This document shows, piece by piece, positions 37,636 to 63,737 of a stretch of DNA of 64,000 nucleotides. The notes under the pieces are model-generated. The model saw nothing but the letters and a program-made list of their open reading frames with translations, made no database searches and was not told where the DNA came from. Origin of the DNA: an uncultured Erysipelotrichaceae bacterium (GTDB taxonomy: Bacteria; Bacillota_I; Bacilli_A; RF39; UBA660); the NCBI GenBank assembly GCA_902775285.1, contig CACYLI010000002.1, positions 82,756-146,755 of the forward strand, given 5' to 3'. The number at the start of each line of letters is the position of its first letter. Within the stretch, counting starts at the first letter, position 1. The position numbers were made by a program, and so were the translations under genes.

Positions 37636-38175
37636 TCACTGTTTATCTTTTAAATAATCCTCATTTACTCCATCTTCAATCTCTGAATCAATATCTTTTT
37701 CATCTATAATAATATCATAATCTTCTTCATTATTAGATACTGGTATTCTAATCTTTTGGTCTCCTACTATCTCAATGCCAAGTTCTTTAGAAATAGTATA
37801 TTTAATTGTTCTATTATCATTACTTACATCTATACAACTTGGATTTTTAAGACTTCTTACTATTATATCTGATTCATCACCTACACTTGCATTATCTTTT
37901 ACTCTAACATGTACTTTTTCTTCATAAAACATTTTATTACTTATAACATCAGTTTTAGTATTGTTTTCATAACTATACCATATATTAATATCATAACTTC
38001 CACTTATTTTTATATAATCCCCAACTTTTTCACCCTTTAATTTATGATTAATCACCCAACAACCTAAAACGGTATCTATATCTCTATCTACACTTACTTC
38101 ATAATCATTTTTAAATGTTTTTTTACCTTTACCTATTATAGCTTTAGTAACTATTTCTTTATAATTATTAAACAT
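37636..38175 (-). CDS. cotE: spore coat morphogenetic protein CotE
   Basis: Aligns with B. subtilis CotE (EIVTKAIIGKGKKTF, GCWVINHK, YDINIWYSYENNTKTDV) and has an acidic C-terminus. The start was moved to the internal Met, which has a strong AGGAGGG RBS; the track ORF extends 17 codons further upstream. Confidence 0.8.
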   Translation of the reverse strand: MFNNYKEIVTKAIIGKGKKTFKNDYEVSVDRDIDTVLGCWVINHKLKGEKVGDYIKISGSYDINIWYSYENNTKTDVISNKMFYEEKVHVRVKDNASVGDESDIIVRSLKNPSCIDVSNDNRTIKYTISKELGIEIVGDQKIRIPVSNNEEDYDIIIDEKDIDSEIEDGVNEDYLKDKQ

Positions 38176-38217
38176 GACAAATACCCTCCTATAATAAAAT
38201 ATGTAAATTATTTTTAT

Positions 38218-39642
38218 TTGCCACAATACATTATTATTTTATTTTTATTACATAATAATATTATGAATATAGTAAAAGAATTATATAAAAATAAAGAACA
38301 TATGATAGATCTTCAAATAAAAGAAGTTCCTTTTAATAATGATAAAATTTATGTAATAAATATTCAAAGTGTTTCTTCTTCTAATCTTACTAATGAATAT
38401 ATACTTGAATACTTTTCAAAACTTAATATAAGTAAAAAAAGATTTATTAATATTAAAAAAGATATTTTAAAAAGTATTCCATCTATAAGTTATATAGTAA
38501 TAAATGAAAAAGATATATATGATTATTTATTTGAAGGATTTACGATTCTAATATATAAAGATAATATACTTGCTTTTGAAACTAAAGCAAATCTAGATAG
38601 AAGTATTAGCGAACCCACAAGTGAACCTACTGTTAAAGGACCAAAAGATTCTTTTAATGAAAACTATAATATTAATATTGGTTTAATTAGAAAAAGAATC
38701 AAAAATAAAAACTTATATATAGACGAAATAATACTTGGTACTAAAACAAATACAAGAATAAGTATTATGTACTTAAATGATATAGTAGATAAAAAACTAC
38801 TTAATGATGTTAAAAATAAGATTAAAAATATTAAAACAGATAAAATATTAGATACTTATTATATAAAAGAATTAATTAAAAATGAAAATAAAACTCTATT
38901 TCCTACTATTAAATCTACGGAAAAGCCAGACACTATATCTAAAGTTCTAACAGAAGGAAAAATCTGTATACTTTCAGAAAACTCAAATAGTGTTTTAATC
39001 ATACCAACATTTTTTTTAGATTTTTTTTACAATCAAGAAGATAATTATCAGAAAAAGTTTTTTACTTATTTTGTATTATTTATAAGACTTTTAGCTTTTT
39101 TTATAACAATATTTGCACCTGCTATTTATTTATCTTTAATCACATATGATCAACAAATGTTGCCTACTGACTTATTAATAAGTTTTTCAAATCAAAGAGC
39201 AAATGTTCCATTTCCTGCTTTAATTGAAGCATTTATACTAATGTTTACTTTTGAAATTCTATATGAAGCTGATGCACTAACTCCTTCATCTAGAGGTACA
39301 TCTCTTTCTGTATTAGGAGCCTTAATATTAGGTGATGCTGCAGTATCAGCTGGAATAGTTTCTCCTATAATGGTAATAGTTGTTGCTATAACGGCAATTT
39401 CTTCAATATTCTTTGCATACCATGATTTTCAATCATTTATTAGACTTTATAGATATTTTTTAATGTTACTAGCTTCTGTTTTTGGAATAATTGGAATACT
39501 TTTTGGATTCTTACTAATAATAACAAAACTATGTAATCTTAAATCATTTGGTAAACCATTTTTAATAAATATCGCTCCTCTAATACAAAACAAGAATAAA
39601 AAATCATTAATTATTCAAAATACAAATAAAGGTGATATATGA
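38218..39642 (+). CDS. gerAA: spore germination protein, GerA family A subunit
   Basis: GerA A-subunit C-terminal membrane-domain motifs (PSSRGTSLSVLGALILGDAAV…). Confidence 0.85.
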   Translation: MPQYIIILFLLHNNIMNIVKELYKNKEHMIDLQIKEVPFNNDKIYVINIQSVSSSNLTNEYILEYFSKLNISKKRFINIKKDILKSIPSISYIVINEKDIYDYLFEGFTILIYKDNILAFETKANLDRSISEPTSEPTVKGPKDSFNENYNINIGLIRKRIKNKNLYIDEIILGTKTNTRISIMYLNDIVDKKLLNDVKNKIKNIKTDKILDTYYIKELIKNENKTLFPTIKSTEKPDTISKVLTEGKICILSENSNSVLIIPTFFLDFFYNQEDNYQKKFFTYFVLFIRLLAFFITIFAPAIYLSLITYDQQMLPTDLLISFSNQRANVPFPALIEAFILMFTFEILYEADALTPSSRGTSLSVLGALILGDAAVSAGIVSPIMVIVVAITAISSIFFAYHDFQSFIRLYRYFLMLLASVFGIIGILFGFLLIITKLCNLKSFGKPFLINIAPLIQNKNKKSLIIQNTNKGDI

Positions 39643-40691
39643 AAAAAATATTATTAATACTTTCAATATTTTTACTAACAGGTTGTTATGATTATACAGA
39701 AATAAATAAATTAGCTATTATTAGTGGGATGATAATAGATTATCAAGATAATGAGTATGTTATAACTAGTCAAGTAATTCAAAATGAAAAAGAATCAAAT
39801 ATAAGAGTTGTTACTACAAAAGGAAAATCAATTGATGAATGTGTATCTAAAATATCTAAGTCTTTAAATAAAAATATTTTTATATCTCATTTGAAAGTAT
39901 TATTATTAACTGAAAGTATTATAAAAAATGATATTGAATATGAAGATTATTTCTTAAGAAATTCTAAATCAAAAATGAATTATTATGTATATTATATTGA
40001 TGATAAATATAAAGATAAAATATTTTTAAACAATATTAATGATAAAGCTTCTTCTTTATATTTAAAAGATTTAACTGATTTTAATAATGATATATACTCT
40101 TCTTCTAATAAACTTACCTTTTTAGACTTAATGTATAAAAAACTAAACTATGGAATAGAACCAATATATCCAAATATTACTATGGAAGATAAAAATATTT
40201 CTTTAAATGATTTAGTCTTATTTAAAAATAATGAAAAAATAACACTAAATAATGAAGAAAGTATTTTTTATAATATTATTACTAATAATACAAATAAAAC
40301 TACTTTAACAATACCGTGTGATAATGATAACTTTTCAATAGAATTAAATAATATTAAAACTAAATACAAATGGAATAATAAATTTAATATTAATATAAAA
40401 TTTGATGCTAAAATAAATAGTTATAATTGTAAATATAAATTACAAAACAATAAAACTACAAATAAATTAAGTAAACTAGTAAATAATTATATAAATAAAA
40501 AAAGTAAAGATGTTGTAAATATTGCTGTAAATAATAAAATAGATTTTATTGGTATTGGTAACTATATATATAAACATGATAGTAAATATTTTGATTTTAA
40601 AAAAAATGATTGGAATGATCACCTAGATAAGATTAATATAAAAATAAATACAGATTCCATAATTAAATCTATAGGAGAAATGAGAAAATGA
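39639..40691 (+). CDS. gerAC: spore germination protein, Ger(x)C lipoprotein subunit
   Basis: Lipobox LLTGC; C-subunit size; overlaps the A and B genes by 4 nt each. Confidence 0.8.
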   Translation: MKKILLILSIFLLTGCYDYTEINKLAIISGMIIDYQDNEYVITSQVIQNEKESNIRVVTTKGKSIDECVSKISKSLNKNIFISHLKVLLLTESIIKNDIEYEDYFLRNSKSKMNYYVYYIDDKYKDKIFLNNINDKASSLYLKDLTDFNNDIYSSSNKLTFLDLMYKKLNYGIEPIYPNITMEDKNISLNDLVLFKNNEKITLNNEESIFYNIITNNTNKTTLTIPCDNDNFSIELNNIKTKYKWNNKFNINIKFDAKINSYNCKYKLQNNKTTNKLSKLVNNYINKKSKDVVNIAVNNKIDFIGIGNYIYKHDSKYFDFKKNDWNDHLDKINIKINTDSIIKSIGEMRK

Positions 40692-41770
40692 ATGAAGAAA
40701 AAATAAATAGTTTTGGAGTATTTACTATAATTACTTCTCTTACCAGCTCTGCATTATATGGTATATTCACTTCATATATGTTAAATAAAGCAAGAAATGC
40801 TTCAGTAATTTCTATATTAATTGGAACAATATTAGTATTAATAATAGCTAAAATAATATTAAATTTTTTTTATAAATATCCTAGTTTAACTTATACGGAG
40901 AAAATAAAAAAAATACATAAGCACTATAAAATAATAGCTATTATTTCTGTTTTATGTTCTACACTTGGTTACATCTTATTTACATATAGGTTAACATCTT
41001 TTATGTCAACACAATATCTAGTTAACACTCCAAGAATTCTTATTTCTATTCTAATATTATTTATTACTTTTTATATTGCAAGTAATGGAATTGAAACAAC
41101 TATTAGAGTATCAACTATTACTTTTTATATATCAATGTTTATTTTTTTATTTGACTTATTTAGTTTAGTTAATCAAATAAAAATAGATAATATTTTACCT
41201 TTATTAAATACCTCCTATAGTAATATATTTATTTCATCAATTACTTTTGCTTTTTATTTTACTATTCCTATAACAAATATTTATTCATTCAAATTAAATC
41301 AAATAGTAGACAAAAATAAGTTTAAAAAGTATTATTATTTATCAATTATTTTATCCCTTCTAATAGCTATTATTTCAATATTTACTACTATTGGTATATC
41401 TGGTATTAAAATAAATGAATTATTTGATTATCCAATATATACCCTTTTAAAAAGAATTAAACTTTTTTCATTTTTAGATTCTCTAGAAAATGTTAGTATT
41501 ATGCTTTGGATATTATTTATTATTAATACATCTAATATGTCTTTATTATTTATTTTTAATACTATAAAAGAAACTTTCAATTTAAATAAAAAGAAAAGTA
41601 ATATTATAAATATATTAATTATTATTTTTTCTTTTATAATATCTAATTTTGTATTATTTAATAATAATTATAGTGAAACATATAATTATATATGGATACC
41701 CTTTTCAATTCTTTTTATTATTTTCATTCTAATAATTTATTCTCAAATAAAAGATAGATTAAATAAATAA
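40688..41770 (+). CDS. gerAB: spore germination protein, GerAB permease-like subunit
   Basis: About 10 TM helices, APC-superfamily-like; third gene of the A-C-B operon. Confidence 0.8.
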   Translation: MNEEKINSFGVFTIITSLTSSALYGIFTSYMLNKARNASVISILIGTILVLIIAKIILNFFYKYPSLTYTEKIKKIHKHYKIIAIISVLCSTLGYILFTYRLTSFMSTQYLVNTPRILISILILFITFYIASNGIETTIRVSTITFYISMFIFLFDLFSLVNQIKIDNILPLLNTSYSNIFISSITFAFYFTIPITNIYSFKLNQIVDKNKFKKYYYLSIILSLLIAIISIFTTIGISGIKINELFDYPIYTLLKRIKLFSFLDSLENVSIMLWILFIINTSNMSLLFIFNTIKETFNLNKKKSNIINILIIIFSFIISNFVLFNNNYSETYNYIWIPFSILFIIFILIIYSQIKDRLNK

Positions 41771-41771
41771 T

Positions 41772-43394
41772 CTATCTTTTTAATACAGTTTCTTTAGATA
41801 CAATTGCATCTTTTAAATTAACCATTGTAGATAAATTTTCATCAAGTTTACTTCCAGTTAAATTAACTCCTTTATAATTCGACCAATCATAAATGTTTAC
41901 ATCATCAAACTTTGCATATTCTGCTGATTTTCCATATACTTTTTGAAGATTTATAACAGCATTTGAATCTCTAAAATCTATATATCTTATATCTACATTA
42001 GAAAAATCAATTAATGATAAATCTAAAAATTTAAGTATTGGAATAAAACCACTTCTTATTTTTAAATGATCATCTTCTTTTTCAAATAATACACTTTCTT
42101 TTATTTGAATAGAATGTAATAATTCTTTAACTTCATTTCCTTCATTATTACTAAGACTTGAAATCTCTTTATTTAGTGTTTTAATTAAAGAAGCAATTTT
42201 TTCAATATTATCTTTATTTACTTTTTCTTTTTCTGTTTTAATAGCTTTAAATTTACTAGCTTTTTGCTTAGCTTCTTTTTCTATATGTATTTGTTTCATA
42301 TAATCAATATTAGCTAACTCTTCTGTACACTGTACAACTACTTTATCAATTCTATTACACAATGTATTAATAAGTTTTTCATATTTTTTCTTTTCTTTAT
42401 CATTTAAATCCATTTGTTTTAAATATTTTCTTAAAGCTATTTTATATTTTGATAAATTGATTAAATTATGATATATGTTACCATACTCATCAACATCAAA
42501 AAATGCATATACATTAAAAATCTCTGAAAGAGCAGCTATTCCTATTAAAAGTAATATAGTTAAACATACTATAAGTATAGTTTCTAAAACGAATAAAAAA
42601 GGATCAACATCAGTAGTTCTACCGATTATATCTTCATTAAATATTTCAAAATTAGCTACTCTATATTCACCTTGTGGAATATTTGCAAATTCACTTTCAC
42701 TAACTAATCTAGTATCTATTGGTTCAAGTGAACTTAAGTCTATACTATTTAATTGATCAGAAGTTATACTTTTTCCATTTTCTATAACGTATGTTTCTTG
42801 TAATCTAAATCCACTATTATCATTAGCAGAATATACTTTTATCGTAAGATTATCACTATGATTTCTATCATATTTTATAGATTCTTCACTTTTTCCATCA
42901 GAACTAACTGTATATTCTATAACTTGTGGAGAATTAAAAGTATAACGAGCAAGTTCTTTTTCAGCAAATATACCCGCACCAATAGGCAATAATGTTATAA
43001 GAGCTCCTATAGTCGATCCAATTACAGCATGATAATCAACATATCTTTTATCATATTGTGGTCTATTTTTTTCTAATTCTTTTTTCTCATCTTTAGTTTC
43101 CATTAAACTAGTTCTATTCTCTTTAAGTTGTTTAGTTAAATCAGTTAATAATGCATTAAAAGTATTAAGTTTAATAATATATTCTTCAATCAAACCTTGT
43201 TCAAATAATAATCTTATACCTTTATCTGATAATACTTCATATCTAAGCATATCATATAATGTATATAAATCTTTAGTATCATAACCTTCAATAGTCATTA
43301 GTCTTAAACTATCATTTATACTATTTAAAAACTTCTTTATAACAGCATGATGATTCTCATAATCACTATACTCTAAAGCTGTTTCACTATTCAT
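41772..43394 (-). CDS. hypothetical membrane protein with a pentapeptide-repeat-like stretch and coiled coil
   Basis: Single central TM helix, coiled-coil N-terminal region, one more TM helix and a NVDIRYIDFRDSNAV… repeat-like segment. Confidence 0.4.
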   Translation of the reverse strand: MNSETALEYSDYENHHAVIKKFLNSINDSLRLMTIEGYDTKDLYTLYDMLRYEVLSDKGIRLLFEQGLIEEYIIKLNTFNALLTDLTKQLKENRTSLMETKDEKKELEKNRPQYDKRYVDYHAVIGSTIGALITLLPIGAGIFAEKELARYTFNSPQVIEYTVSSDGKSEESIKYDRNHSDNLTIKVYSANDNSGFRLQETYVIENGKSITSDQLNSIDLSSLEPIDTRLVSESEFANIPQGEYRVANFEIFNEDIIGRTTDVDPFLFVLETILIVCLTILLLIGIAALSEIFNVYAFFDVDEYGNIYHNLINLSKYKIALRKYLKQMDLNDKEKKKYEKLINTLCNRIDKVVVQCTEELANIDYMKQIHIEKEAKQKASKFKAIKTEKEKVNKDNIEKIASLIKTLNKEISSLSNNEGNEVKELLHSIQIKESVLFEKEDDHLKIRSGFIPILKFLDLSLIDFSNVDIRYIDFRDSNAVINLQKVYGKSAEYAKFDDVNIYDWSNYKGVNLTGSKLDENLSTMVNLKDAIVSKETVLKR

Positions 43395-55191: not shown

Positions 55192-57186
55192 TTACATTTT
55201 CTTTTTAGTTTTTTCTAATCTTTGAACCAATAAAACTAAATTATCTCTTGTTAATTTTTCATTTCCTCTATAATTTCTAATTGAATCACCTATTCTTAAT
55301 CCATAAAAATATTCATCACTAATTTCAGGAAAATCATCTCTATTGAATCTATCTCCATTTTCTTTAACAAATCTCATATTTTCAATTGGATAAAGATTGT
55401 TTCTACCGCGTGATGTTAACAAACCATTAGCAAAAACATTAATATGGTTTTTAGTAATTATATTACATACATCTACTTCTTCATATACTATTTTACTGTC
55501 AATTAACGAAATAACTTCACCTTTACTATTTATTGTAGTTGTTCCAATTTTCATCTTTGAGCAAGATATAAAGCTATTATCATCACAACTAAATATTCTA
55601 TGGTCACCAATTACTTTTAATGTGCTTCCATCACTAAATGTCAATAAAAGATAATTTGATGATTTTTCTTCTTTCATAATCCACAACACTTCAGCCCAAA
55701 CGTAACATCCTTTATCAAAATCCCATGATAATACTAAATCATCATATGTTATATCTTTAAGTTTTTTCTTAACTTTTTTCTTCTTCTTTCTATCGTATAC
55801 ATCAATTTCCATATCTCCACTTAAGCAAGTAACAAATGTAGCGTGAGAATAGCATCCATTACTACTATCTTTTACTAAATCACTTATATAAACATCTTGA
55901 TAACTTAATTTATGCTGATTTAAACAATATATAGAATTATTTCCATTATTACAATCTGAAGAAGGTTTGTCATAAATGTAAAACTTTTCTTTTGTATTAT
56001 AATTACTATTGTTTTTAAAGCATTCCCCTGCTGTTTGATAATTCTTACAAGTTACATTACTAGTAACACCTTTCACATTAATATATGATAATGTTGAAAA
56101 ATAGCAAACATTTACATCTTCAATTTTAGTCCATTGAATATTAAGTGTATTTTCAGAACAATTATTACAAATCGATACACCAGACACATAATAATCTGAC
56201 ACAGAATTGTTTAATGTATCTATATAGGTTTGAAATGTATTATTATCTACCCAAGGTCCTGTAAATGATTCATTAACAGAAAAAGAATCTGCATAAAAGA
56301 ATTCATTTTCTACCAAACCACAATTTCTAATATCATCCGACATTTCAGCTCTAATAACTGCTCTGTTATATCCAAAACCAGCATTCAAATATGTAGTCTT
56401 TCTATAATCTGTATCTAAGTATTTATTCTTTGTTAAATCATATCTATGTTCTGCTAAATCAGATTTTTTTAATTCAAATTTTAAATCATGATTTCCTTGA
56501 TAAATCCAATAAATTCTGTAATAAGATGAATCTGTAAAACAATTGGATTTTGCTAGATTAACTCTAATAGCTAGTTGTCTATTATTCCCAGAATTTAATA
56601 AGTCTGTAGTATGAATTGTATAAGCATCATATTTATATCCATCATCTATTCCATTTATATAAACTGATTTTACATCTCCTGATGTAGAAAAACTTCCTCT
56701 ATCAGTAACTAATTTATACTTAATAGTTGGTTTTCCAATATATGGACCATTTCCATCTATTTTAACTTTTTCATCTTCATCCAATTCAGAAACTCTTTGT
56801 ATATCAGTTATATTTTCTATTTTTAGTCCAGTACCATCATAACTGTATTGAAATGTTCCATCTGTTGCATAATACTTAGTAATTTTACCACTTTGATTTA
56901 ATTTAATATAGTATTCTAGTTCACTTCTACCGGTTAAATCAAGACTATTAGTACATCCATTTTTGCATCTTGAATATATTCTTTCACCACTATTAAACAT
57001 AGAATCTTGAATCCATGTTTGTTCGGCTGTTTTAAATACTTCTTTGACTTCTGTTGTAAAACTATTTTCTTTTGCAGTATTAAACATATTCATAACATTT
57101 GGTAGTGCTATTATTACTAAAATTGCAAGTATAGCTATTACTGCAAGTAACTCAACTAATGTAAATCCTTTTTTCATATATATCAC
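55192..57186 (-). CDS. type IV prepilin-like protein with a large Cys-rich ectodomain and a C-terminal Hint (BIL/hedgehog-intein-like) domain
   Basis: N-terminus MKKGFTLVELLAVIAILAIL is a class III prepilin signal (G-1, F+1, E+5). Residues about 454-592 carry Hint blocks: CLSGDMEIDV (A), TLKVIGDHRIF (B), NHINVFANGLLTS (F/G). A 72-aa tail follows. Confidence 0.65.
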   Translation of the reverse strand: MIYMKKGFTLVELLAVIAILAILVIIALPNVMNMFNTAKENSFTTEVKEVFKTAEQTWIQDSMFNSGERIYSRCKNGCTNSLDLTGRSELEYYIKLNQSGKITKYYATDGTFQYSYDGTGLKIENITDIQRVSELDEDEKVKIDGNGPYIGKPTIKYKLVTDRGSFSTSGDVKSVYINGIDDGYKYDAYTIHTTDLLNSGNNRQLAIRVNLAKSNCFTDSSYYRIYWIYQGNHDLKFELKKSDLAEHRYDLTKNKYLDTDYRKTTYLNAGFGYNRAVIRAEMSDDIRNCGLVENEFFYADSFSVNESFTGPWVDNNTFQTYIDTLNNSVSDYYVSGVSICNNCSENTLNIQWTKIEDVNVCYFSTLSYINVKGVTSNVTCKNYQTAGECFKNNSNYNTKEKFYIYDKPSSDCNNGNNSIYCLNQHKLSYQDVYISDLVKDSSNGCYSHATFVTCLSGDMEIDVYDRKKKKKVKKKLKDITYDDLVLSWDFDKGCYVWAEVLWIMKEEKSSNYLLLTFSDGSTLKVIGDHRIFSCDDNSFISCSKMKIGTTTINSKGEVISLIDSKIVYEEVDVCNIITKNHINVFANGLLTSRGRNNLYPIENMRFVKENGDRFNRDDFPEISDEYFYGLRIGDSIRNYRGNEKLTRDNLVLLVQRLEKTKKKM
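55411..55827 (-). other. Hint domain coding segment within the pilin-like gene
   Basis: The Cys1 codon is at 55825-55827. The terminal HN of canonical inteins is replaced by TS, so only N-terminal thioester chemistry is expected. Confidence 0.55.
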
Positions 57187-57312
57187 CTATTCTATAAATC
57201 CATTATATATAAATTTAACAGATTATACAATTATAACAATTGTTTTTTTTAAAAAAACAATATGTAAACCATGTAAAATTATAGATTATATAATGAAAAA
57301 TATGTAATATTT

Positions 57313-57321
57313 TGTTATAAT
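57313..57321 (+). promoter_or_regulatory. extended -10 promoter (TGtTATAAT) for the SH3b-dockerin gene
   Basis: TGnTATAAT about 35 nt upstream of a strong RBS (GGGAGGAAAG) and the ATG at 57357. Confidence 0.4.
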
Positions 57322-57356: not shown

Positions 57357-59630
57357 ATGAAAAAATTAACTTTTTTAATTATTTTTTTAACTATTCTATT
57401 CTTTTTAATCCCACTAAAAATTAATGCTAGTTATGATGCAATTATAAGTGGTAATACAGTTAGAATTCGTTTGCTTCCAGGTACAGAAAATACTGCTTTA
57501 TATACAGTTAATTCAGGTACATCAATTACCTTACCTGATAAAACTTTATATTCAGGTACTGGATGCAGTGCTAAATGGTATAAAGTTAATTATAAAGATA
57601 AAACTGGTTATGTATGCTCTACTTATGTAAAATTTGTTGATAATACTTTTACTGGAATAAATGTTGTTGATTGGACTTCAAGAGTAAATGCTAATAATGT
57701 TGCTTGTAGAAGTGGTGCTAATAAATCATATAGTGTACAAGATACTCTATCTTTAGGGGTAAATGTTAGAATTATTTCTACAGTTGATTCTTCTAACTCA
57801 GGATGTTCAACTGATAAATGGCATAAAATTCAATATTATGGAAATAAAACTGGTTATATTTGTTCTCAATATGTAACAACTAAATCAGATATAATAGCAA
57901 ATGATGAAGAATATTCAAAATCTCTTAAAGCTCTTGGATTTACTGATTCTTATATTCCATATCTAACATATCTACATAATAAATATCCTAATTGGGTTTT
58001 TATAGCTAAAAAAACAGATTCAAATTTTTCAGTAGCGGTAAGTAGCGAAGAAGGAAAAAATTATATGCAAACAACAAATAATAATTATCGTACTTCTTCT
58101 ACTCCTGCTGAAGGTAGTTCATGGTTTAAAGCTAATACTGGAGTAATAGCATTTTATATGGATCCTAGAAACTTTTTAAGTGAAGAAAGAATATTCATGT
58201 TTGAAAAATTAGATTATTCTAATGAATTTGAAGAAAAATATCCATCTATGATTAAAGCTATTTTTGGAAATGGAAAACTATCAGATGACATGTATACAGT
58301 TCCAATCTTTAATGCAGGAAAAATAAATAAAATAAGTCCTGTTCATATAGCAAGTAGAATTAAACAAGAAGTAACTGCTAATGGAAGTGATTCTACAAAT
58401 GGAACAGAATTTACATTTAAAGGAAAAAAATATAGTGATTATTATAATTTCTTTAATATCGGAGCTTATGAAGAAACAATAGACGGAGTTAAATACTCTG
58501 CTATCACAAGAGGTCTTGCATATGCAGCTAAATTAGTAAGAAATACTGGAAGTTTATGGAATAACATTGAAACTGCTATAGTTGAAGGAAGTAATTTCCT
58601 AGCAAATGGATATGTAAATAATGGACAAGGAACACTTTATTATCAAAAATTCAATGTATCTCCTGATGCTTATTATTCAAGATATACTCATCAATATATG
58701 ACAAATGTTCAAGCACCTGCAACTGAAGGTAATTCAACTTATAATTCTTATAAAAAAGCTGGTATTTTATCTGAACCTTTAATATTTGAAATACCAGTTT
58801 ATAACAATATGCCATTATACACTTCTCTACCTGCTTCAGGTGATAATAATACAAATTTAAAATCACTAAATATTGAAGGATACTCACTTACTCCTAATTT
58901 TGATAGTGATATATTAACTTATGAATCTTATGTTTCTTCAATTACTAATGAATTAAATGTAACTGCTACTACGGAAAGTTCAAAAGCTAGTATTAGTGGT
59001 ACTGGAAAAATATCTTTAAATGAAGAAGATAATGATATTACAATAACTGTAACTGCACAGACAGGTGAAACTAAAAACTATGTTATAACAATTAAAAAAG
59101 TAACAGATAATACAGTTAGTGAAAAACCTATAATTAATAATCAAAATGAAAATAATACAGATACAAATCCTACTAATAATAACACTAATAATACAACTGC
59201 TACAAATATTTCAACTATTCTTAATAATGCAGCTCTAACTATAAATGGTAGTAATATTACAAATATAAAATATAATACTTCTGCTTCTATAATTCAAAAT
59301 AATATTATTAGATCAGGAGCTCAAAGTATTAATATAACAGATTCAAAAGGAACAAATATTTCTGGAAGTACTTATATATCTACTGGTAGTAAATTAACTA
59401 TTAATACAACTAATGAAACTAATACTTATACTTTTATTATTAAAGGTGATACTTCTGGTGATGGACAAATTTCAATACTAGATTTATTACAAGTTCAAAA
59501 ACATATTAAAGGAGATAAAAAATTATCAAATGAATATTTATTATCTGCTGATACTTCAGGAGATGGTAAAGTTACAATATTAGATTTATTACAAGTTCAA
59601 AAGCATATTAAAGGAGACAAAAAATTATAG
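57357..59630 (+). CDS. secreted SH3b-domain cell-wall-associated protein with a cadherin-like beta-sandwich domain and a C-terminal type I dockerin
   Basis: Signal peptide; two SH3b-like repeats (…AKWYKVNYKDKTGYVCSTYV… and …DKWHKIQYYGNKTGYICSQYV…); cadherin-like domain (NLKSLNIEGYSLTPNFDS…ITIKK); two dockerin calcium-binding segments (GDTSGDGQISILDLL and ADTSGDGKVTILDLL). Confidence 0.7.
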   Translation: MKKLTFLIIFLTILFFLIPLKINASYDAIISGNTVRIRLLPGTENTALYTVNSGTSITLPDKTLYSGTGCSAKWYKVNYKDKTGYVCSTYVKFVDNTFTGINVVDWTSRVNANNVACRSGANKSYSVQDTLSLGVNVRIISTVDSSNSGCSTDKWHKIQYYGNKTGYICSQYVTTKSDIIANDEEYSKSLKALGFTDSYIPYLTYLHNKYPNWVFIAKKTDSNFSVAVSSEEGKNYMQTTNNNYRTSSTPAEGSSWFKANTGVIAFYMDPRNFLSEERIFMFEKLDYSNEFEEKYPSMIKAIFGNGKLSDDMYTVPIFNAGKINKISPVHIASRIKQEVTANGSDSTNGTEFTFKGKKYSDYYNFFNIGAYEETIDGVKYSAITRGLAYAAKLVRNTGSLWNNIETAIVEGSNFLANGYVNNGQGTLYYQKFNVSPDAYYSRYTHQYMTNVQAPATEGNSTYNSYKKAGILSEPLIFEIPVYNNMPLYTSLPASGDNNTNLKSLNIEGYSLTPNFDSDILTYESYVSSITNELNVTATTESSKASISGTGKISLNEEDNDITITVTAQTGETKNYVITIKKVTDNTVSEKPIINNQNENNTDTNPTNNNTNNTTATNISTILNNAALTINGSNITNIKYNTSASIIQNNIIRSGAQSINITDSKGTNISGSTYISTGSKLTINTTNETNTYTFIIKGDTSGDGQISILDLLQVQKHIKGDKKLSNEYLLSADTSGDGKVTILDLLQVQKHIKGDKKL
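59433..59627 (+). repeat. dockerin duplicated-segment coding region (two near-identical stretches of about 55 nt)
   Basis: The nucleotide-level repeats at about 59470-59530 and 59575-59630 both encode ILDLLQVQKHIKGDKKL. Confidence 0.6.
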
Positions 59631-59638
59631 GAGTAAAT

Positions 59639-61111
59639 ATGAAAAAAGTATACAAATATTTATTAATTGGTTTAATAATGCTGTTTTCCAATATATCACT
59701 ATTAAAAGCAGCTTCTGCAAGTATATCGGTATCATCTTCTACAAGTAAAATAGTTGTTGGTAACTCATTTACTGTTACTATTAAAGTATCATCTTCTAAT
59801 ACACTTGGTACCTGGGAATTTACTCCTAGTTATGATACTTCTAAATTTAAACTTACAAGTGGACAAACAAGTGTAGTAGATTATGGAGATGGTAAAACTA
59901 AATCAAAAAGCTATACATATAAATTTAAAGCTATTGGTACAGGTAGTGGCACAATTTCTGTTAAAAGTTATGGTGTAATTGACTATAATTCAGAATCAAA
60001 AATGAGTGTATCAGTTAGCTCTAAAACAATAAATGTAATAACACAATCTCAATTAGAAGCATCTTATTCAAAAAACAATAATTTAAAAAGTTTAAGTATA
60101 GAAGGTCTTACATTATCACCTGCTTTTAATGCTAATACTACAAAATATACTGTTAGTGCTAATGCCAATACAACAGTAGTCAATGTAAAAGCAAGTGTTC
60201 AAGATTCAAAATCTAAAGTATCTGGTACAGGAAAACATAATGTATATGAAGGTGAAAATAAAATAAATGTTACTGTAACAGCTCAAAATGGAAGTACTAA
60301 AACTTATACAATAATTGTTAATGTAGTAGATCCAAATCCAATTGAAGTAACATTAAATAATCAAAAATATACTGTTGTAAAAAGAGAAAGTAATTTAGAT
60401 ACTCTTGAAGGTTTTGATAAAACTACAGTTGATATTAATAATCAAAAAATACCTGCCCTATTTAATGAACTTAATAATCTTACACTAATTGGTCTAAAGA
60501 ATACTGAAGGTGATATATCATTATATACATATAATAAAGAGAATAATACTTATAACTTATATAATGATACTATTCTAGAACAAATGAAATTAATATTTCT
60601 TGATATAGATAAAGAAATAAATAATTTAAAAAAAGAAGTAATTAAAATAGATGATATAGATATAATATCTCTTAAATATAATGATCAATATATTGTAAAA
60701 GCTAGAAACTTTAAAACTGGTGAAGATGGCTATTATATATATGATAAAGAAACAAATACTGCTATTAGATATATAGAAAATGTAGAAAAAAAAGATAATA
60801 CAGATGAAAAATATAAAAAACAAATTCTTGGTTATAAAAAAATGATAGTACTTCTTGGTGTAGAAACTGTTATAATAATATGTATTCTTATATGTATATT
60901 ATTTACTAAAATGAGAAAAAATAAAAAGAGAAGAAAATTATTACAAGCAAAAATTGAAGAAGAAAGAATTAAAGAAGAAGAACTAAAAAAACAAGAAGTA
61001 TTAGTTAAAAAGAAAGAAAAAAAGAAAACTACTAATAAGAATAATAAAAGAAAAAAGAAAGAAGTGCTAAAAAATGAAGAAAGTAAAGAAGAACAAAAAG
61101 AAAATATTTAA
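59639..61111 (+). CDS. membrane-anchored cohesin-like scaffold protein with a cadherin-like domain and a charged cytoplasmic tail
   Basis: Signal peptide; cohesin-like beta-sandwich (VGNSFTVTIKVSSSNTLGTWEFTPSYDTSKFKL…); cadherin-like domain paralogous to that of the upstream gene; TM helix (IVLLGVETVIIICILICILF); K/E-rich C-terminal tail. Confidence 0.55.
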   Translation: MKKVYKYLLIGLIMLFSNISLLKAASASISVSSSTSKIVVGNSFTVTIKVSSSNTLGTWEFTPSYDTSKFKLTSGQTSVVDYGDGKTKSKSYTYKFKAIGTGSGTISVKSYGVIDYNSESKMSVSVSSKTINVITQSQLEASYSKNNNLKSLSIEGLTLSPAFNANTTKYTVSANANTTVVNVKASVQDSKSKVSGTGKHNVYEGENKINVTVTAQNGSTKTYTIIVNVVDPNPIEVTLNNQKYTVVKRESNLDTLEGFDKTTVDINNQKIPALFNELNNLTLIGLKNTEGDISLYTYNKENNTYNLYNDTILEQMKLIFLDIDKEINNLKKEVIKIDDIDIISLKYNDQYIVKARNFKTGEDGYYIYDKETNTAIRYIENVEKKDNTDEKYKKQILGYKKMIVLLGVETVIIICILICILFTKMRKNKKRRKLLQAKIEEERIKEEELKKQEVLVKKKEKKKTTNKNNKRKKKEVLKNEESKEEQKENI

Positions 61112-63098
61112 AACAATAATATGTTTATTATTGATGTTTCTTTTATTTTTAGGAGTATTATTAGATAGCTATGCTCTATTCCTATATGATGAAGTTGAAA
61201 CATTACTTAGAATACTTGGTGCTTCAATTACAATTTATTTATTTATATTTTTATCATATTTATTACTTAGAAGTATTAAAAAAGGAAAAATTGCTTTTAT
61301 AATACCATTTTTAATAAGTATTATAGTATTAGTAGTTGAAGGTGGACTTTATTATTATTTAAACAAGCTTTATACTTCAATTGATGATTTCAGTGACAAT
61401 AAAGCAATGAAATATACTGCTTTAGTTACATATGATAAATCATTAAATAGTTATAAAGACTTAGATAATAAAAAAATTGGAGTTACCAATGATAAAACTG
61501 ATTATGAAGGAAATATTCTTGCTCAAGAAGCAATAGAAGAACTTCATTTAACTGTAGCTAATGAAATAGTTGTATTTGATTCAACTTTAGAAGAATTATA
61601 TGCACTTAAAAATAAAGAAATAGATGCTGGATTCTTTAGTAGAAATTATGTTGATATGTTCTACTCTATGGAAGATTTTGAAGATATTGAAGAAGAAACA
61701 AAAGTTATCTATGAAAAAGAAAAAGAATATACTGATACAGAAGAGGAAATAAAAAGTGAAGGTGCTTCATTAAACAAACCATTTAGTATGTTGTTTATTG
61801 GTGTTGATTCATCAAAAGATGGTGTTACCTCTGGTTATAATGCTGATGTATTATTATTAGCTACGTTTAATCCAAAAACCTTAAGAGCTACTCTTACTTC
61901 TGTTCCAAGAGACATGTATTTAAAAACAGCTTGTTCAAATGGAACATATAGAAGAATAAATACGACTACTTGGGGAAGTTCTTCTTCCTGTGCAGTTCAA
62001 ACAATTGAAAGAATGTTTGGAGTTAATATTGATTATTATGCAAAAGTTAATTTTAAGGGAGTTGTTCAACTAGTAGATGCAGTTGGTGGAATTGATGTAA
62101 ATGTTGACTACCCTATTTGTGAACAAAATAGTAGTAGACAATGGGGAGCAAATACACAATACATTAAGTCTGGTCTTCAACATCTAAATGGTGAACAAGC
62201 TCTAGCATTTGCAAGAAATAGACATAAACCTAATGATGGAAGTAAAACTGGAAAAGCTATGGCAAAGTATTGCCCTACTTGGACAGGTGGTTCAAGAAAT
62301 GATTATACAAGAGGAAAAAATCAAATGAAAGTTATTCTAGGAGTTGTAAATTCAGCTACTAAAATGACTAATCCAAATGATGTTGTGGGTGTACTTGATA
62401 AAATTAAAAAGAATTTTCAAACAAATATTAAATCAAAAGATTTATTATCATTATATAATTTAGCAAAATCAATAGTTGTATCAGATAATACAAATTTAGT
62501 AAATGTACAAAGAATGCAATTAAGCGGACATAGTGCTTGGGGAAAAATATATGAACCTACTTCTAAAAGTTACCCAGCTGTAATTATTCCATATAATGGA
62601 AGTATTAGTGATATTAAAAAAGAAATAAAAGCTAATCTTAATAACTCAACAACTAGTGGAGCAAAAAGCATTAAATTTGATATAAATAACTTATATAAAG
62701 ATACTATAATTGGTCAAGGTAAATATTCTGCTTCATCAATACCAACTTTAAAAGACTTATCTAAATATTCAGTAGATGGAATTAAAAACTATGCTTCATC
62801 TAATCATTTAACTCTTAGATTTATAGATAGTTCAAATGGTCAAGAAGTTAATATTAATGATTTTAGTGAATATTCATTTCATTATCAAAAAGAACATAAA
62901 GATATTATATTAGATCAACTAAGTAATTTAACTATTTATGTTAAAAAGAAAGCAGTAGTGACACCTACTACTAATAATCAAACTAATACAAATACTAATA
63001 CTAATACTGATAATACAAAAGAGGAAGTTAAAGAAGAAGTAAAAGAAGAAGAAAAACCAACACCTGATCCTACTCCAACAGAAACAAATACACAATAA
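61074..63098 (+). CDS. LCP family (LytR-CpsA-Psr) phosphotransferase with extended N- and C-terminal regions
   Basis: N-terminal TM helix; LCP core (ADVLLLATFNP…LTSVPRDMYL…VNFKGVVQLVDAVGGIDVNV…LNGEQALAFARNRH); 674 aa. Confidence 0.85.
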   Translation: MKKVKKNKKKIFKTIICLLLMFLLFLGVLLDSYALFLYDEVETLLRILGASITIYLFIFLSYLLLRSIKKGKIAFIIPFLISIIVLVVEGGLYYYLNKLYTSIDDFSDNKAMKYTALVTYDKSLNSYKDLDNKKIGVTNDKTDYEGNILAQEAIEELHLTVANEIVVFDSTLEELYALKNKEIDAGFFSRNYVDMFYSMEDFEDIEEETKVIYEKEKEYTDTEEEIKSEGASLNKPFSMLFIGVDSSKDGVTSGYNADVLLLATFNPKTLRATLTSVPRDMYLKTACSNGTYRRINTTTWGSSSSCAVQTIERMFGVNIDYYAKVNFKGVVQLVDAVGGIDVNVDYPICEQNSSRQWGANTQYIKSGLQHLNGEQALAFARNRHKPNDGSKTGKAMAKYCPTWTGGSRNDYTRGKNQMKVILGVVNSATKMTNPNDVVGVLDKIKKNFQTNIKSKDLLSLYNLAKSIVVSDNTNLVNVQRMQLSGHSAWGKIYEPTSKSYPAVIIPYNGSISDIKKEIKANLNNSTTSGAKSIKFDINNLYKDTIIGQGKYSASSIPTLKDLSKYSVDGIKNYASSNHLTLRFIDSSNGQEVNINDFSEYSFHYQKEHKDIILDQLSNLTIYVKKKAVVTPTTNNQTNTNTNTNTDNTKEEVKEEVKEEEKPTPDPTPTETNTQ

Positions 63099-63126
63099 AA
63101 AAGTTCACATTTGTGAACTTTTTTAT
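63097..63126. terminator. bidirectional rho-independent terminator
   Basis: aagttcaca-tt-tgtgaactt hairpin flanked by A and T runs, between convergent genes. Confidence 0.5.
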
Positions 63127-63737
63127 TCTCCTTTAATTATATATAACTTTCCATTATCTTTAATCATTGTAAGAGTAATACTCTTTTCATATTTTAAATC
63201 TTCAACATATTCCCAATTAAGTAATACTTTATAAGCATCATATTCTTCACTTTTATAAGTTACTTTAACTTCTTCTATGTTAGTTACATTTACTTCTTTT
63301 ACTTCTGGTAACTTTTGTGTTCTTTTACCATCTAGATTATTTTCAACATTTTTATATAATGTAGCACCCATATTTTCTTTAAAGTTTTCTTTCAAATCTT
63401 TATGTAAATATTCAAGACCACCAATATCAGTACCAGTTAATTTATTATTAAGCGTAAATACGTCGATTACAAACAATTTAGAAAGCAATTCAGCATACTT
63501 ATTATAATTTATACTATCTTCATTTAAAGTCTTTTCTAACTCCTTAAAAGTACTACTAAAAAGTTTCCCATCACTTTCTTTTAAAGTATAGCCGTATAAC
63601 TCTAAACTTCTTAATTGTTTAGTAGCTGTTTTTGGTTTTAAAATACTATTATATCCAGTGTATATTGTAAAACCAAATAAACAAATACCAATTATTATAA
63701 ATATTATAATTATTAAAACATCTAACTTTTTTTTCAT
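63123..63737 (-). CDS. hypothetical membrane-anchored protein
   Basis: N-terminal TM helix; 204 aa. Confidence 0.4.
   Translation of the reverse strand: MKKKLDVLIIIIFIIIGICLFGFTIYTGYNSILKPKTATKQLRSLELYGYTLKESDGKLFSSTFKELEKTLNEDSINYNKYAELLSKLFVIDVFTLNNKLTGTDIGGLEYLHKDLKENFKENMGATLYKNVENNLDGKRTQKLPEVKEVNVTNIEEVKVTYKSEEYDAYKVLLNWEYVEDLKYEKSITLTMIKDNGKLYIIKGE

Follow-up and report, generated by a model that had tools for sequence, protein, structure and literature searches.

Adjacent genes for a dockerin-bearing GH73-type autolysin and a membrane-anchored cohesin: a predicted one-to-one tether in uncultured RF39-type Bacilli

Cellulosomes are assembled through cohesin-dockerin pairs, and it is for this role that such pairs are best known. 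The locus described here lies in a 64,000-nucleotide stretch of DNA (the window; positions 82,756 to 146,755 of contig CACYLI010000002.1, assembly GCA_902775285.1) from an uncultured Erysipelotrichaceae bacterium placed by GTDB in the lineage RF39, and carries a gene for a secreted, dockerin-bearing protein (gene A) directly followed by a gene for a membrane protein with a cohesin-like domain (gene B). No cellulosomal carbohydrate-active enzyme module was seen in either protein, and the locus raises the question of what a cohesin and a dockerin would be joining there. The answer developed below, to which we give roughly two chances in three, is that A and B form a dedicated one-to-one cohesin-dockerin tether that holds an autolysin at the membrane, its claim to exclusiveness covering the dockerins of the window and of the locus flanks. 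The window had previously been annotated from its letters and open reading frames (the sequence-only reading), and the reading frames, domains and neighbours listed there were all found in place, as was the AT-rich character of the DNA (about 24% G+C in the window).

Relatives were collected in a species scan with one genome per species, which gave gene B relatives in 352 genomes. Locus counts refer to the best 80 of these, with denominators (80, 77, 75 or 63) that vary with the amount of DNA around each locus, and the identity of the compared gene B relatives went down to 37%. The 80 best relatives are mostly metagenome-assembled genomes labelled uncultured Bacilli, Tenericutes, Mycoplasmatota or Erysipelotrichaceae, some with other labels, and also take in Clostridium sp. 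CAG:524 and CAG:1000; in GTDB, family CAG-1000 belongs to order RF39 (PMC8035907). The gathering scores used were 24.1 bits for PF00963, 22.9 bits for Dockerin_1 and 62.3 bits for TIGR00350, and the profile search of representative proteins covered 1.84 billion proteins.

Domains of the two proteins

The product of gene A, for which, as for that of gene B, the databases hold no name, has in its translation a basic N-terminus, a hydrophobic core and an A-x-A-like site, and is a predicted Sec-type secreted protein. The signal peptide is followed, in this order, by two SH3b domains, a GH73-type domain, a cadherin-like domain, an Asn/Thr-rich linker, a small beta region and a type I dockerin. Database relatives of gene A number 2364, and nearly all of those listed carry both PF00404 and PF08239.

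Dockerin_1 (PF00404) matched residues 696-751 of gene A with 46.6 bits (cut-off 22.9) over profile positions 1-56 of 57, and the PDB dockerins 4uyp_B, 2ccl_B and 5lxv_B were matched as well, bearing out the two-segment type I dockerin of the sequence-only reading. Its calcium loops read DTSGDGQISILD and DTSGDGKVTILD, the helix LDLLQVQKHIKG occurs twice, and the repeats DTSGDGQISILDLLQVQKHIKG and DTSGDGKVTILDLLQVQKHIKG have Asp at loop positions 1, 5 and 12; EF-hand families of Pfam gave weak matches on the same residues. Conservation within A is highest in the dockerin (column mean 0.66; catalytic domain, 0.59). In a six-frame scan of the window, DTSGDGQISILD and DTSGDGKVTILD were the only dockerin-type loops, and no further dockerin motif was found in 0.94 Mb of locus flanks from the 80 genomes. 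The beta-rich region ahead of the dockerin, overlooked in the earlier annotation, continues directly into the first calcium loop (…TYTFIIKGDTSGDG) and, scanned as an isolated segment, matched no Pfam family.

The central domain of about 300 residues had been noted as a possible hydrolase. In phmmer searches of PDB sequences, residues 255-482 matched the S. aureus Atl glucosaminidase 6fxo (E 2.8e-7), and the AtlE entries 4pi7 (E 1.3e-5) and 4pi8 (E about 1e-5) were also matched; the possible hydrolase is therefore best described as a GH73-type peptidoglycan hydrolase. Glu338 stands opposite the Glu of the AtlE ALVETGNG motif in the 4pi7 alignment; 4pi8 has Ala at this position, and its alignment is shifted by one residue, so that the Ala faces A341. 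A Y-x-T-[DN] motif and the catalytic Glu are kept between gene A and Atl/AtlE, and among 77 gene A homologues E338 and N450 are conserved in 100% and Y447 in 99%. No Pfam family, PF01832 (Glucosaminidase) included, was reached at E<=10 when residues 191-492 were scanned alone, nor was one reached by this domain in the full-length scan, and the domain therefore represents a divergent GH73-type subfamily. Gene A encodes, on this comparison, a putative autolysin with a GH73-type N-acetylglucosaminidase domain. The SH3b repeats reported earlier in the 757-residue protein were recovered as two SH3_3 domains (PF08239; 58.4 bits in the full-length protein, 65.9 bits over two stretches in the isolated segment). 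The cadherin-like domains of A and B, rightly recognised as paralogous, are 45% identical over 82 residues (E 4e-22).

The N-terminal domain of gene B had been called cohesin-like, and it came through both profile and structure comparison. Residues 24-140, scanned in isolation, matched PF00963 with 25.5 bits (cut-off 24.1; E 1.7e-5). All 43 of 43 relatives of the domain matched Cohesin at E<=10, the best at 2.3e-7, and one family member reached 31.7 bits over profile positions 11-119. A single-sequence search of gene B against the PDB gave no matches; a profile of the domain placed cohesins in the top five positions among PDB sequences, at weak E-values of 0.05-0.8. The AlphaFold2 (AF2) model of the domain, set beside the nine-stranded, jelly-roll beta-sandwich of solved cohesins, has ten strands, a predicted local distance difference test score (pLDDT) of 97 and a predicted template-modelling score (pTM) of 0.88. 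When the model was compared with the PDB by Foldseek, cohesins made up more than half of the 50 listed matches at E<=1e-3 (E 1.5e-6 to 1e-3, TMq 0.57-0.72, TM 0.65-0.72), headed by C. acetobutylicum CohA2 (6kgf, E 1.5e-6, TMq 0.70) and including three from C. perfringens (2w1n, 2jh2, 2vo8), A. fulgidus 2xdh, 4dh2, and OlpC, OlpA, ScaB and ScaC, with A. thermocellus and R. flavefaciens among the source organisms. Identity to the C. perfringens and A. fulgidus cohesins is just 10-17%.

In the representative proteins, the profile of this domain matched 1095 clusters at E<=1e-3 and 288 at E<=1e-10. The domain is N-terminal in nearly all listed matches, which are mostly proteins of 430-600 residues, the remainder being shorter and apparently partial. 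Among the matches is P0365 (E 4.5e-20), a protein with four cohesins (114 bits) and a dockerin by Pfam. From the isolated PF00963 match, the PDB profile search, the Foldseek comparison and the match to P0365, the N-terminal domain of B is therefore, by family and predicted fold, a genuine but short cohesin, of a class that routine full-length Pfam annotation overlooks.

Another match of the cohesin-domain profile, P0352 (2579 residues), has 17 short matching stretches (E 7e-21), probably a repeat-driven false positive. It was considered as a giant scaffoldin and discounted, as a repetitive two-partner-secretion (TPS) protein with incongruous, repeat-driven Pfam matches and no cohesin match, and serves as a warning for profile searches with the Ser/Thr-rich N-terminal domain of B.

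At least 831 database relatives share the layout of gene B. In the family alignment, A24 and A27 are invariant. Beyond the cohesin and the cadherin-like domain lies an orphan all-beta domain of 150 residues (231-380; AF2 pLDDT 87, and about 90 over the 150 residues; 13 strands), overlooked in the sequence-only reading, which matched no Pfam family and had best Foldseek E-values of 0.12 in the PDB and 0.025 in BFVD, neither significant. Two similar hairpin motifs within it, …GDISLYTYNKENNTYNLY… and …GEDGYYIYDKETNTAIRY…, are vaguely like cell-wall-binding repeats. L406, E409 and L417 of the transmembrane helix are invariant among 55 relatives; the invariant Glu409 (60863-60865; …LLGVETVIII…) stands inside the sole transmembrane helix of B, and a buried charge at this place suggests an intramembrane partner. 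The cytoplasmic tail keeps its composition across relatives and varies in sequence and length.

The sequence-only reading had described B as laid out like an anchoring scaffoldin. Signal peptide, cohesin, transmembrane helix and charged tail are all present; the term itself was too strong for a protein with a single cohesin, a transmembrane rather than an SLH or sortase anchor, and an extra domain. A cellulosome or anchoring-scaffoldin system would have a scaffoldin with several cohesins, anchored by SLH or sortase, that brings together many dockerin-bearing enzymes acting on plant polysaccharides. B has one cohesin and a transmembrane anchor, and across the window and flanks a peptidoglycan hydrolase alone carries a dockerin, so the pair is not classed as such a system.

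Conservation and co-variation of the pair

A dockerin segment lies directly upstream of the cohesin gene in all 80 species genomes, an RF39-family genome among them, and the gene upstream of the cohesin gene carries the GH73 domain in 77 of 77 loci and SH3b domains in 63 of the 75 with enough upstream DNA. The distant member P0390 likewise has a GH73-dockerin gene directly upstream of its cohesin gene. In the genomes examined, the invariant core is thus a dockerin-autolysin and a membrane cohesin. The adjacency, for which the earlier annotation had allowed an incidental origin, is kept down to 37% identity and in P0390, and is accompanied by co-changing positions; it is not incidental.

The two dockerin segments change in concert. 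Both segments carry identical residues at positions 10 and 11 in 55 of 63 homologues, a count that takes in ten different non-IL residue pairs; the lineage variants at these positions are IL, SL, ML, MV, VL, IV, II, AL, IR, PL and IK. Such symmetry is as expected of a dual-binding type I dockerin, the binding mode being predicted.

Mutual information with average product correction (MI-APC) was calculated between dockerin columns and gene B columns for 80 pairs. In each segment, dockerin positions 10, 11 and 17 had six to nine of their top ten partners within the cohesin domain, against an expectation of 3.1. The remaining variable dockerin columns were mostly near the expected 3, and a few were raised, e.g. 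position 8 of the second segment. Dockerins with IR were coupled with D or N at cohesin position 119 and F or Y at 122, those with AL were coupled with L at 94, and S or M at position 10 went with a change of W59 to I or V.

Co-change was scored by parsimony on a tree of the GH73 domain; of its 152 branches, 26 carry changes at dockerin positions 10, 11 and 17. These 26 branches hold 35.1% of the changes in the cohesin domain, 24.6% of those in the cadherin-like domain of B and 26.7% of those in its C-terminal domain. Of 12 changes at cohesin E119, 11 fall on dockerin-change branches (nominal binomial p 9.6e-6; background 0.287; 370 columns tested), and ten of the 12 best co-changing columns of B (51, 58, 81, 83, 92, 94, 96, 114, 119 and 139) belong to the cohesin domain. 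When dockerin columns were ranked by their preference for the cohesin, helix positions 18, 17, 21, 11, 10, 16 and 15 came out on top, and calcium-loop and linker columns were mostly lower (odds ratios about 0.7-1.45).

The coupled cohesin columns 59 (by mutual information), 81, 83, 92, 94, 96 and 119 map to model strands 3, 5 and 6 and to the loop that leads into strand 8. Dockerins in solved type I complexes bind the 8-3-6-5 sheet of the cohesin, and by our assignment of strand numbers these residues of B would lie on this canonical face.

Gene order and surroundings

Table 1. Coordinates of features of the A-B locus within the window, with strand and basis of assignment (residue numbers refer to the respective protein)
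Feature	Position	Strand	Basis
Promoter-like site: ATGAAA, 17-nucleotide spacing, TG-extended TATAAT	57293..57321	+	consensus scan
Gene A, 757 residues	57357..59630	+	open reading frame, Pfam, PDB sequence similarity
A, predicted signal peptide, residues 1-24, MKKLTFLIIFLTILFFLIPLKINA, followed by SY	57357..57428	+	inferred from translation
A, two SH3b (SH3_3) cell-wall-binding domains, residues 25-190	57429..57926	+	Pfam PF08239
A, GH73-type N-acetylglucosaminidase domain, residues 191-492, putative catalytic Glu338 and Tyr447	57927..58832	+	phmmer vs PDB
A, cadherin-like beta-sandwich, residues 502-580	58860..59096	+	PF12733, 33.2 bits
A, Asn/Thr-rich linker and strand-like beta region, about residues 615-692	59199..59432	+	sequence read
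A, type I dockerin, residues 693-757, two 22-residue segments	59433..59627	+	PF00404
AGGAG ribosome-binding site, overlapping the TAG stop of A, 5 nucleotides before the ATG of B	59629..59633	+	sequence read
Gene B, type I membrane protein with cohesin, 490 residues	59639..61111	+	open reading frame, relatives
B, predicted signal peptide, residues 1-23, …NISLLKA, followed by AS	59639..59707	+	inferred from translation and family alignment
B, short cohesin domain, residues 24-137	59708..60049	+	PF00963, AF2, Foldseek, profile search
B, cadherin-like beta-sandwich, residues 150-228	60086..60322	+	PF12733, 34 bits
B, orphan all-beta extracellular domain, residues 231-380, then juxtamembrane helix, residues 389-401	60329..60778	+	AF2
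B, transmembrane helix, residues 402-423, MIVLLGVETVIIICILICILFT	60842..60907	+	translation
B, Lys/Glu-rich cytoplasmic tail, residues 424-490	60908..61108	+	translation
LCP-family glycopolymer ligase gene, 674 residues, third gene of apparent operon	61074..63098	+	PF03816, NCBIfam LCP models
Palindromic hairpin flanked by A/T runs, terminator-like on both strands	63094..63127		terminator scan

Genes A, B and the LCP ligase gene look like one operon (Table 1). The promoter-like site 36 nucleotides 5' of gene A has 10 of 12 consensus matches and is the sole TG-extended site on the plus strand; promoter-like sites in the AT-rich DNA of the window were not enriched over shuffles, and the site stands as a consensus match only. 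The gap between A and B is mostly 7-15 nucleotides in related loci and -4 in two, with exceptions among 82 rows such as 73 and 371 nucleotides (upstream DNA incomplete) and one extraction artefact. A and B appear from their spacing and signals to be translationally coupled. The LCP gene was recognised by PF03816 (119.2 bits) and TIGR00350 (97.8 bits, cut-off 62.3), and its reading frame overlaps the 3' end of B by 38 nucleotides, as the sequence-only reading had it. Among the 63 related loci with enough DNA, an LCP gene follows B directly in 39 and lies elsewhere in the locus in seven. The hairpin at the end of the LCP gene has a 15-pair stem, AATAAAAAAGTTCACAAATGTGAACTTTTTTATT.

The LCP protein has an unusually long N-terminal region of multiple transmembrane helices (about 200 residues) ahead of the catalytic domain, and its C-terminus (62990-63095) is a low-complexity tail rich in Thr, Asn, Glu, Lys and Pro (…TNNQTNTNTNTNTDNTKEEVKEEVKEEEKPTPDPTPTETNTQ).

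Upstream, on the opposite strand, stands a complete glycerol-phosphate teichoic acid set, comprising a TagGH-like ABC transporter, TagD, three TagF-like proteins, GpsA and TagO. Between tagO and gene A lies a prepilin-Hint gene (664 residues, 55192-57186, minus strand), with a PF07963 match of 28.3 bits, several NCBIfam pilin models and a C-terminal Hint/intein-like match to PF01079 of 25.2 bits, under its 29.7 cut-off. The gene is missing from this place in three related genomes, in one of which a small unannotated open reading frame is found there, and it therefore looks like an insertion. In one distant locus, a small prepilin-like gene (N_methyl) lies directly 3' of the cohesin gene. The dedicated cell-surface assembly neighbourhood proposed earlier was thus largely upheld: the teichoic acid, LCP and pilin-Hint genes are all present, but the pilin-Hint gene is not conserved in the three relatives and the LCP link is looser (39/63).

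Tail-to-tail with the LCP gene, a membrane-anchored protein of 204 residues with no Pfam family is encoded at 63123-63737 on the minus strand. In related loci (L001-L004), this small gene adjoins a gene for an LtaS-type lipoteichoic acid synthase. With wall teichoic acid (WTA), LCP, LtaS and autolysin genes together, the region is therefore a wall-polymer island.

Away from the locus, the lowest G+C of the window (0.18-0.21) was recorded at 38001-42000, where GC skew is near zero; the stretch coincides with three plus-strand reading frames (38218-41770) amid a minus-strand gene array. GC skew in the window tracks the coding strand and is positive at 6-8 kb and 58-62 kb.

The proposed tether, its rivals and known systems

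In the proposed tether, the dockerin of A would bind the 8-3-6-5 sheet of the B cohesin with calcium, and either of its two equivalent helices could do so (dual binding mode). The C-terminal helix would anchor B, so that the cohesin would be placed within the wall, about 10-15 nm out from the membrane. Held there, the glucosaminidase would stay near newly made peptidoglycan; its loss by diffusion would be limited, and cleavage would be confined to the turnover of the cell's own wall or to the separation of daughter cells. Co-expression with the LCP ligase beside the teichoic acid genes may couple the tether to wall maturation. The pair itself is shared across a lineage of uncultured Bacilli (RF39-type) that are AT-rich and live in gut and rumen. 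RF39-type orders are predicted to be walled and to have lost most lyt/cwl endopeptidases and penicillin-binding proteins (PBPs) (PMC10868615), and a conserved, tethered autolysin fits the loss of these hydrolases and PBPs.

A wider version of this mechanism is tentative, with the odds against it: the cohesin-dockerin plug might be the main means of positioning and restraining the principal autolysin of RF39-type gut Bacilli with reduced genomes, in place of wall-polymer targeting or the FtsEX-type control of other Firmicutes, and B might be more than a passive anchor, in that its orphan domain, Glu409 and tail might couple the placement of the autolysin to division or wall synthesis and to teichoic acid attachment by the LCP ligase.

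What weighs against the tether is best taken together with the explanations that draw on it. That A cleaves the wall of its own cell is a presumption, and 17 of the 63 loci have no LCP gene. A genuine tether might instead be directed at foreign peptidoglycan or wall debris, for antagonism or for the supply of muropeptides, as a 'lyticome' rather than a device for remodelling the own wall. Dockerin-fused lysozymes and cell-wall hydrolases of rumen and gut cellulosome producers have been proposed to be attack devices of this kind (PMC6487960, PMC6403190); RF39, ML615J-28 and the RFN20 family CAG-631 have predicted gaps in de novo peptidoglycan synthesis and possibly need scavenged muropeptides (PMC10868615); and A carries SH3b wall-binding domains. 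B, however, has a C-terminal transmembrane helix and only three small outer domains, and its cohesin would therefore lie within or under the own wall and not beyond it. The LCP ligase as operon partner and the teichoic acid neighbours point to assembly of the self wall, and GH73 enzymes that carry wall-binding repeats, SH3b or other, are typically autolysins (Atl, AtlE). We consider this use of the tether unlikely.

Other points bear on the binding itself. The match of the isolated domain to PF00963 is 1.4 bits over the cut-off and covers profile positions 8-64 of 139 only, BatD scores nearly as high, and full-length gene B gave no cohesin in Pfam or NCBIfam, where the cadherin-like domain alone was found. 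The domain is atypically short (about 115 residues against 140-170, some 25-50 fewer than in solved cohesins; 117 against the 133-175 of the Foldseek targets), and a few TRAP-beta and CLIPPER domains are interspersed among the top Foldseek matches. In the co-variation, about 80 related pairs were compared, whose changes are not independent, so that nominal p-values overstate independence; a baseline odds ratio of about 1.2 applies to all dockerin columns; and fewer than 100 bp separate the coding regions of dockerin and cohesin, so that recombination could yield co-change at the level of whole domains. Such linkage does not account for the position-specific pattern inside the dockerin.

On these grounds, A and B might be functionally linked neighbours that do not bind each other through a cohesin and a dockerin, the N-terminal domain of B being a generic Ig-like or BatD-like beta-sandwich and the dockerin binding calcium, a wall polymer or another domain. 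Set against this are the predominance of cohesins among the Foldseek matches, the reach of the profile to the four-cohesin protein P0365, the relative with 31.7 bits, the unbroken adjacency in 80 genomes, the high conservation of the dockerin within A, the concerted change of its two segments and their position-specific co-change with one region of the cohesin, and we find the absence of binding highly unlikely.

It is most improbable that A is one of many partners of B in a larger network, with further dockerins and cohesins in the genome and B as a general membrane anchor, for although transmembrane-anchored single cohesins serve many dockerin proteins in Ruminococcus (PMC13463774) and extra candidate partners are known for a single cohesin in C. 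lentocellum (PMC13487519), no other dockerin-type motif occurs in the window or in the flanks, the adjacency is invariant with apparent translational coupling, the specificity positions co-change with the B cohesin in a lineage-specific manner, and among the relatives, mostly metagenome-assembled genomes, one complete genome measures 1.49 Mb. A phage endolysin or lysis cassette was also considered and ruled out, as both proteins have signal peptides and the locus is chromosomal, syntenic by tagO in 80 genomes and not flanked by phage genes.

The single ingredients of the tether are known: non-cellulosomal cohesins, dockerin-lysozymes, single transmembrane cohesins and a minimal adjacent pair. 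The cohesins of C. perfringens (2w1n, 2jh2, 2vo8) and A. fulgidus (2xdh), among the best structural matches of the B domain, exemplify use outside plant cell-wall degradation. The C. perfringens cohesin-dockerin modules, found in glycoside hydrolase and toxin complexes, join secreted enzymes to each other, and differ from the A-B pair in that they do not link an autolysin to a membrane anchor.

Single-cohesin proteins of Ruminococcus resemble B in that a C-terminal transmembrane helix holds the cohesin in the bilayer, but they work in systems of the cellulosome or amylosome type, which comprise tens of dockerin proteins (PMC13463774), whereas B has additional cadherin-like and orphan domains and one adjacent, co-evolving partner. 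A module that cleaves peptidoglycan is joined to a type I dockerin in the cellulosomal lysozyme of Ruminococcus champanellensis and in dockerin-lysozymes from rumen metagenomes (PMC6403190, PMC6487960). These are lysozyme-type modules of large systems with multiple cohesins and dockerins, with a proposed attack on other bacteria; gene A, by comparison, encodes GH73 and SH3b domains and has one dedicated cohesin at the membrane as its partner, among WTA and LCP genes.

A close parallel is the ClcC/ClcD pair of Cellulosilyticum lentocellum, in which one cohesin and one dockerin, encoded by the adjacent genes Clole_2599/Clole_2598, form a heterodimer, an experimentally verified case of the cellulosome principle working one-to-one (PMC13487519). 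The effect reported for ClcC/ClcD is an enhanced cellulase activity on cellulose, in contrast to the GH73-type peptidoglycan hydrolase of gene A; gene B, moreover, encodes a transmembrane-anchored protein of the wall zone, and the A-B pair, with its predicted binding, spans hundreds of uncultured species. Literature searches for RF39 combined with dockerin found none, and those for Tenericutes or Mollicutes with cohesin and dockerin gave nothing relevant. The combination of a one-to-one GH73 autolysin and membrane cohesin, a setting of wall genes, lineage-wide occurrence and a cohesin missed by annotation was not found in the searchable literature.

Two further comparisons concern the control of autolysins. 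Staphylococcal Atl and AtlE, the closest solved relatives of the catalytic domain of A, are also autolysins that are secreted and carry repeats for wall targeting. In Atl, targeting relies on the protein's own repeats, which bind wall polymers, and Atl differs from A in having neither a dockerin nor a protein anchor. FtsEX, an ABC-type complex, activates coiled-coil hydrolases (CwlO, PcsB, RipC). The principle is analogous, a dedicated membrane partner holding a secreted peptidoglycan hydrolase, but FtsEX has no sequence or fold relationship to A and B, whose coupling would be a passive, calcium-dependent plug. If the binding is true, this strictly conserved one-to-one plug on a peptidoglycan hydrolase, present in 352 or more species of uncultured Bacilli from gut and rumen, the RF39 lineage among them, would add a new mechanism to the few by which Gram-positive bacteria confine potentially lethal autolysins, and would give a handle on the cell-wall biology of a major uncultured lineage predicted to be without most classical hydrolases and PBPs. 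It would also provide a natural set of very small cohesins (~115 residues) with matched dockerin specificities (IL, SL, AL, IR and others), which could serve as orthogonal protein connectors.

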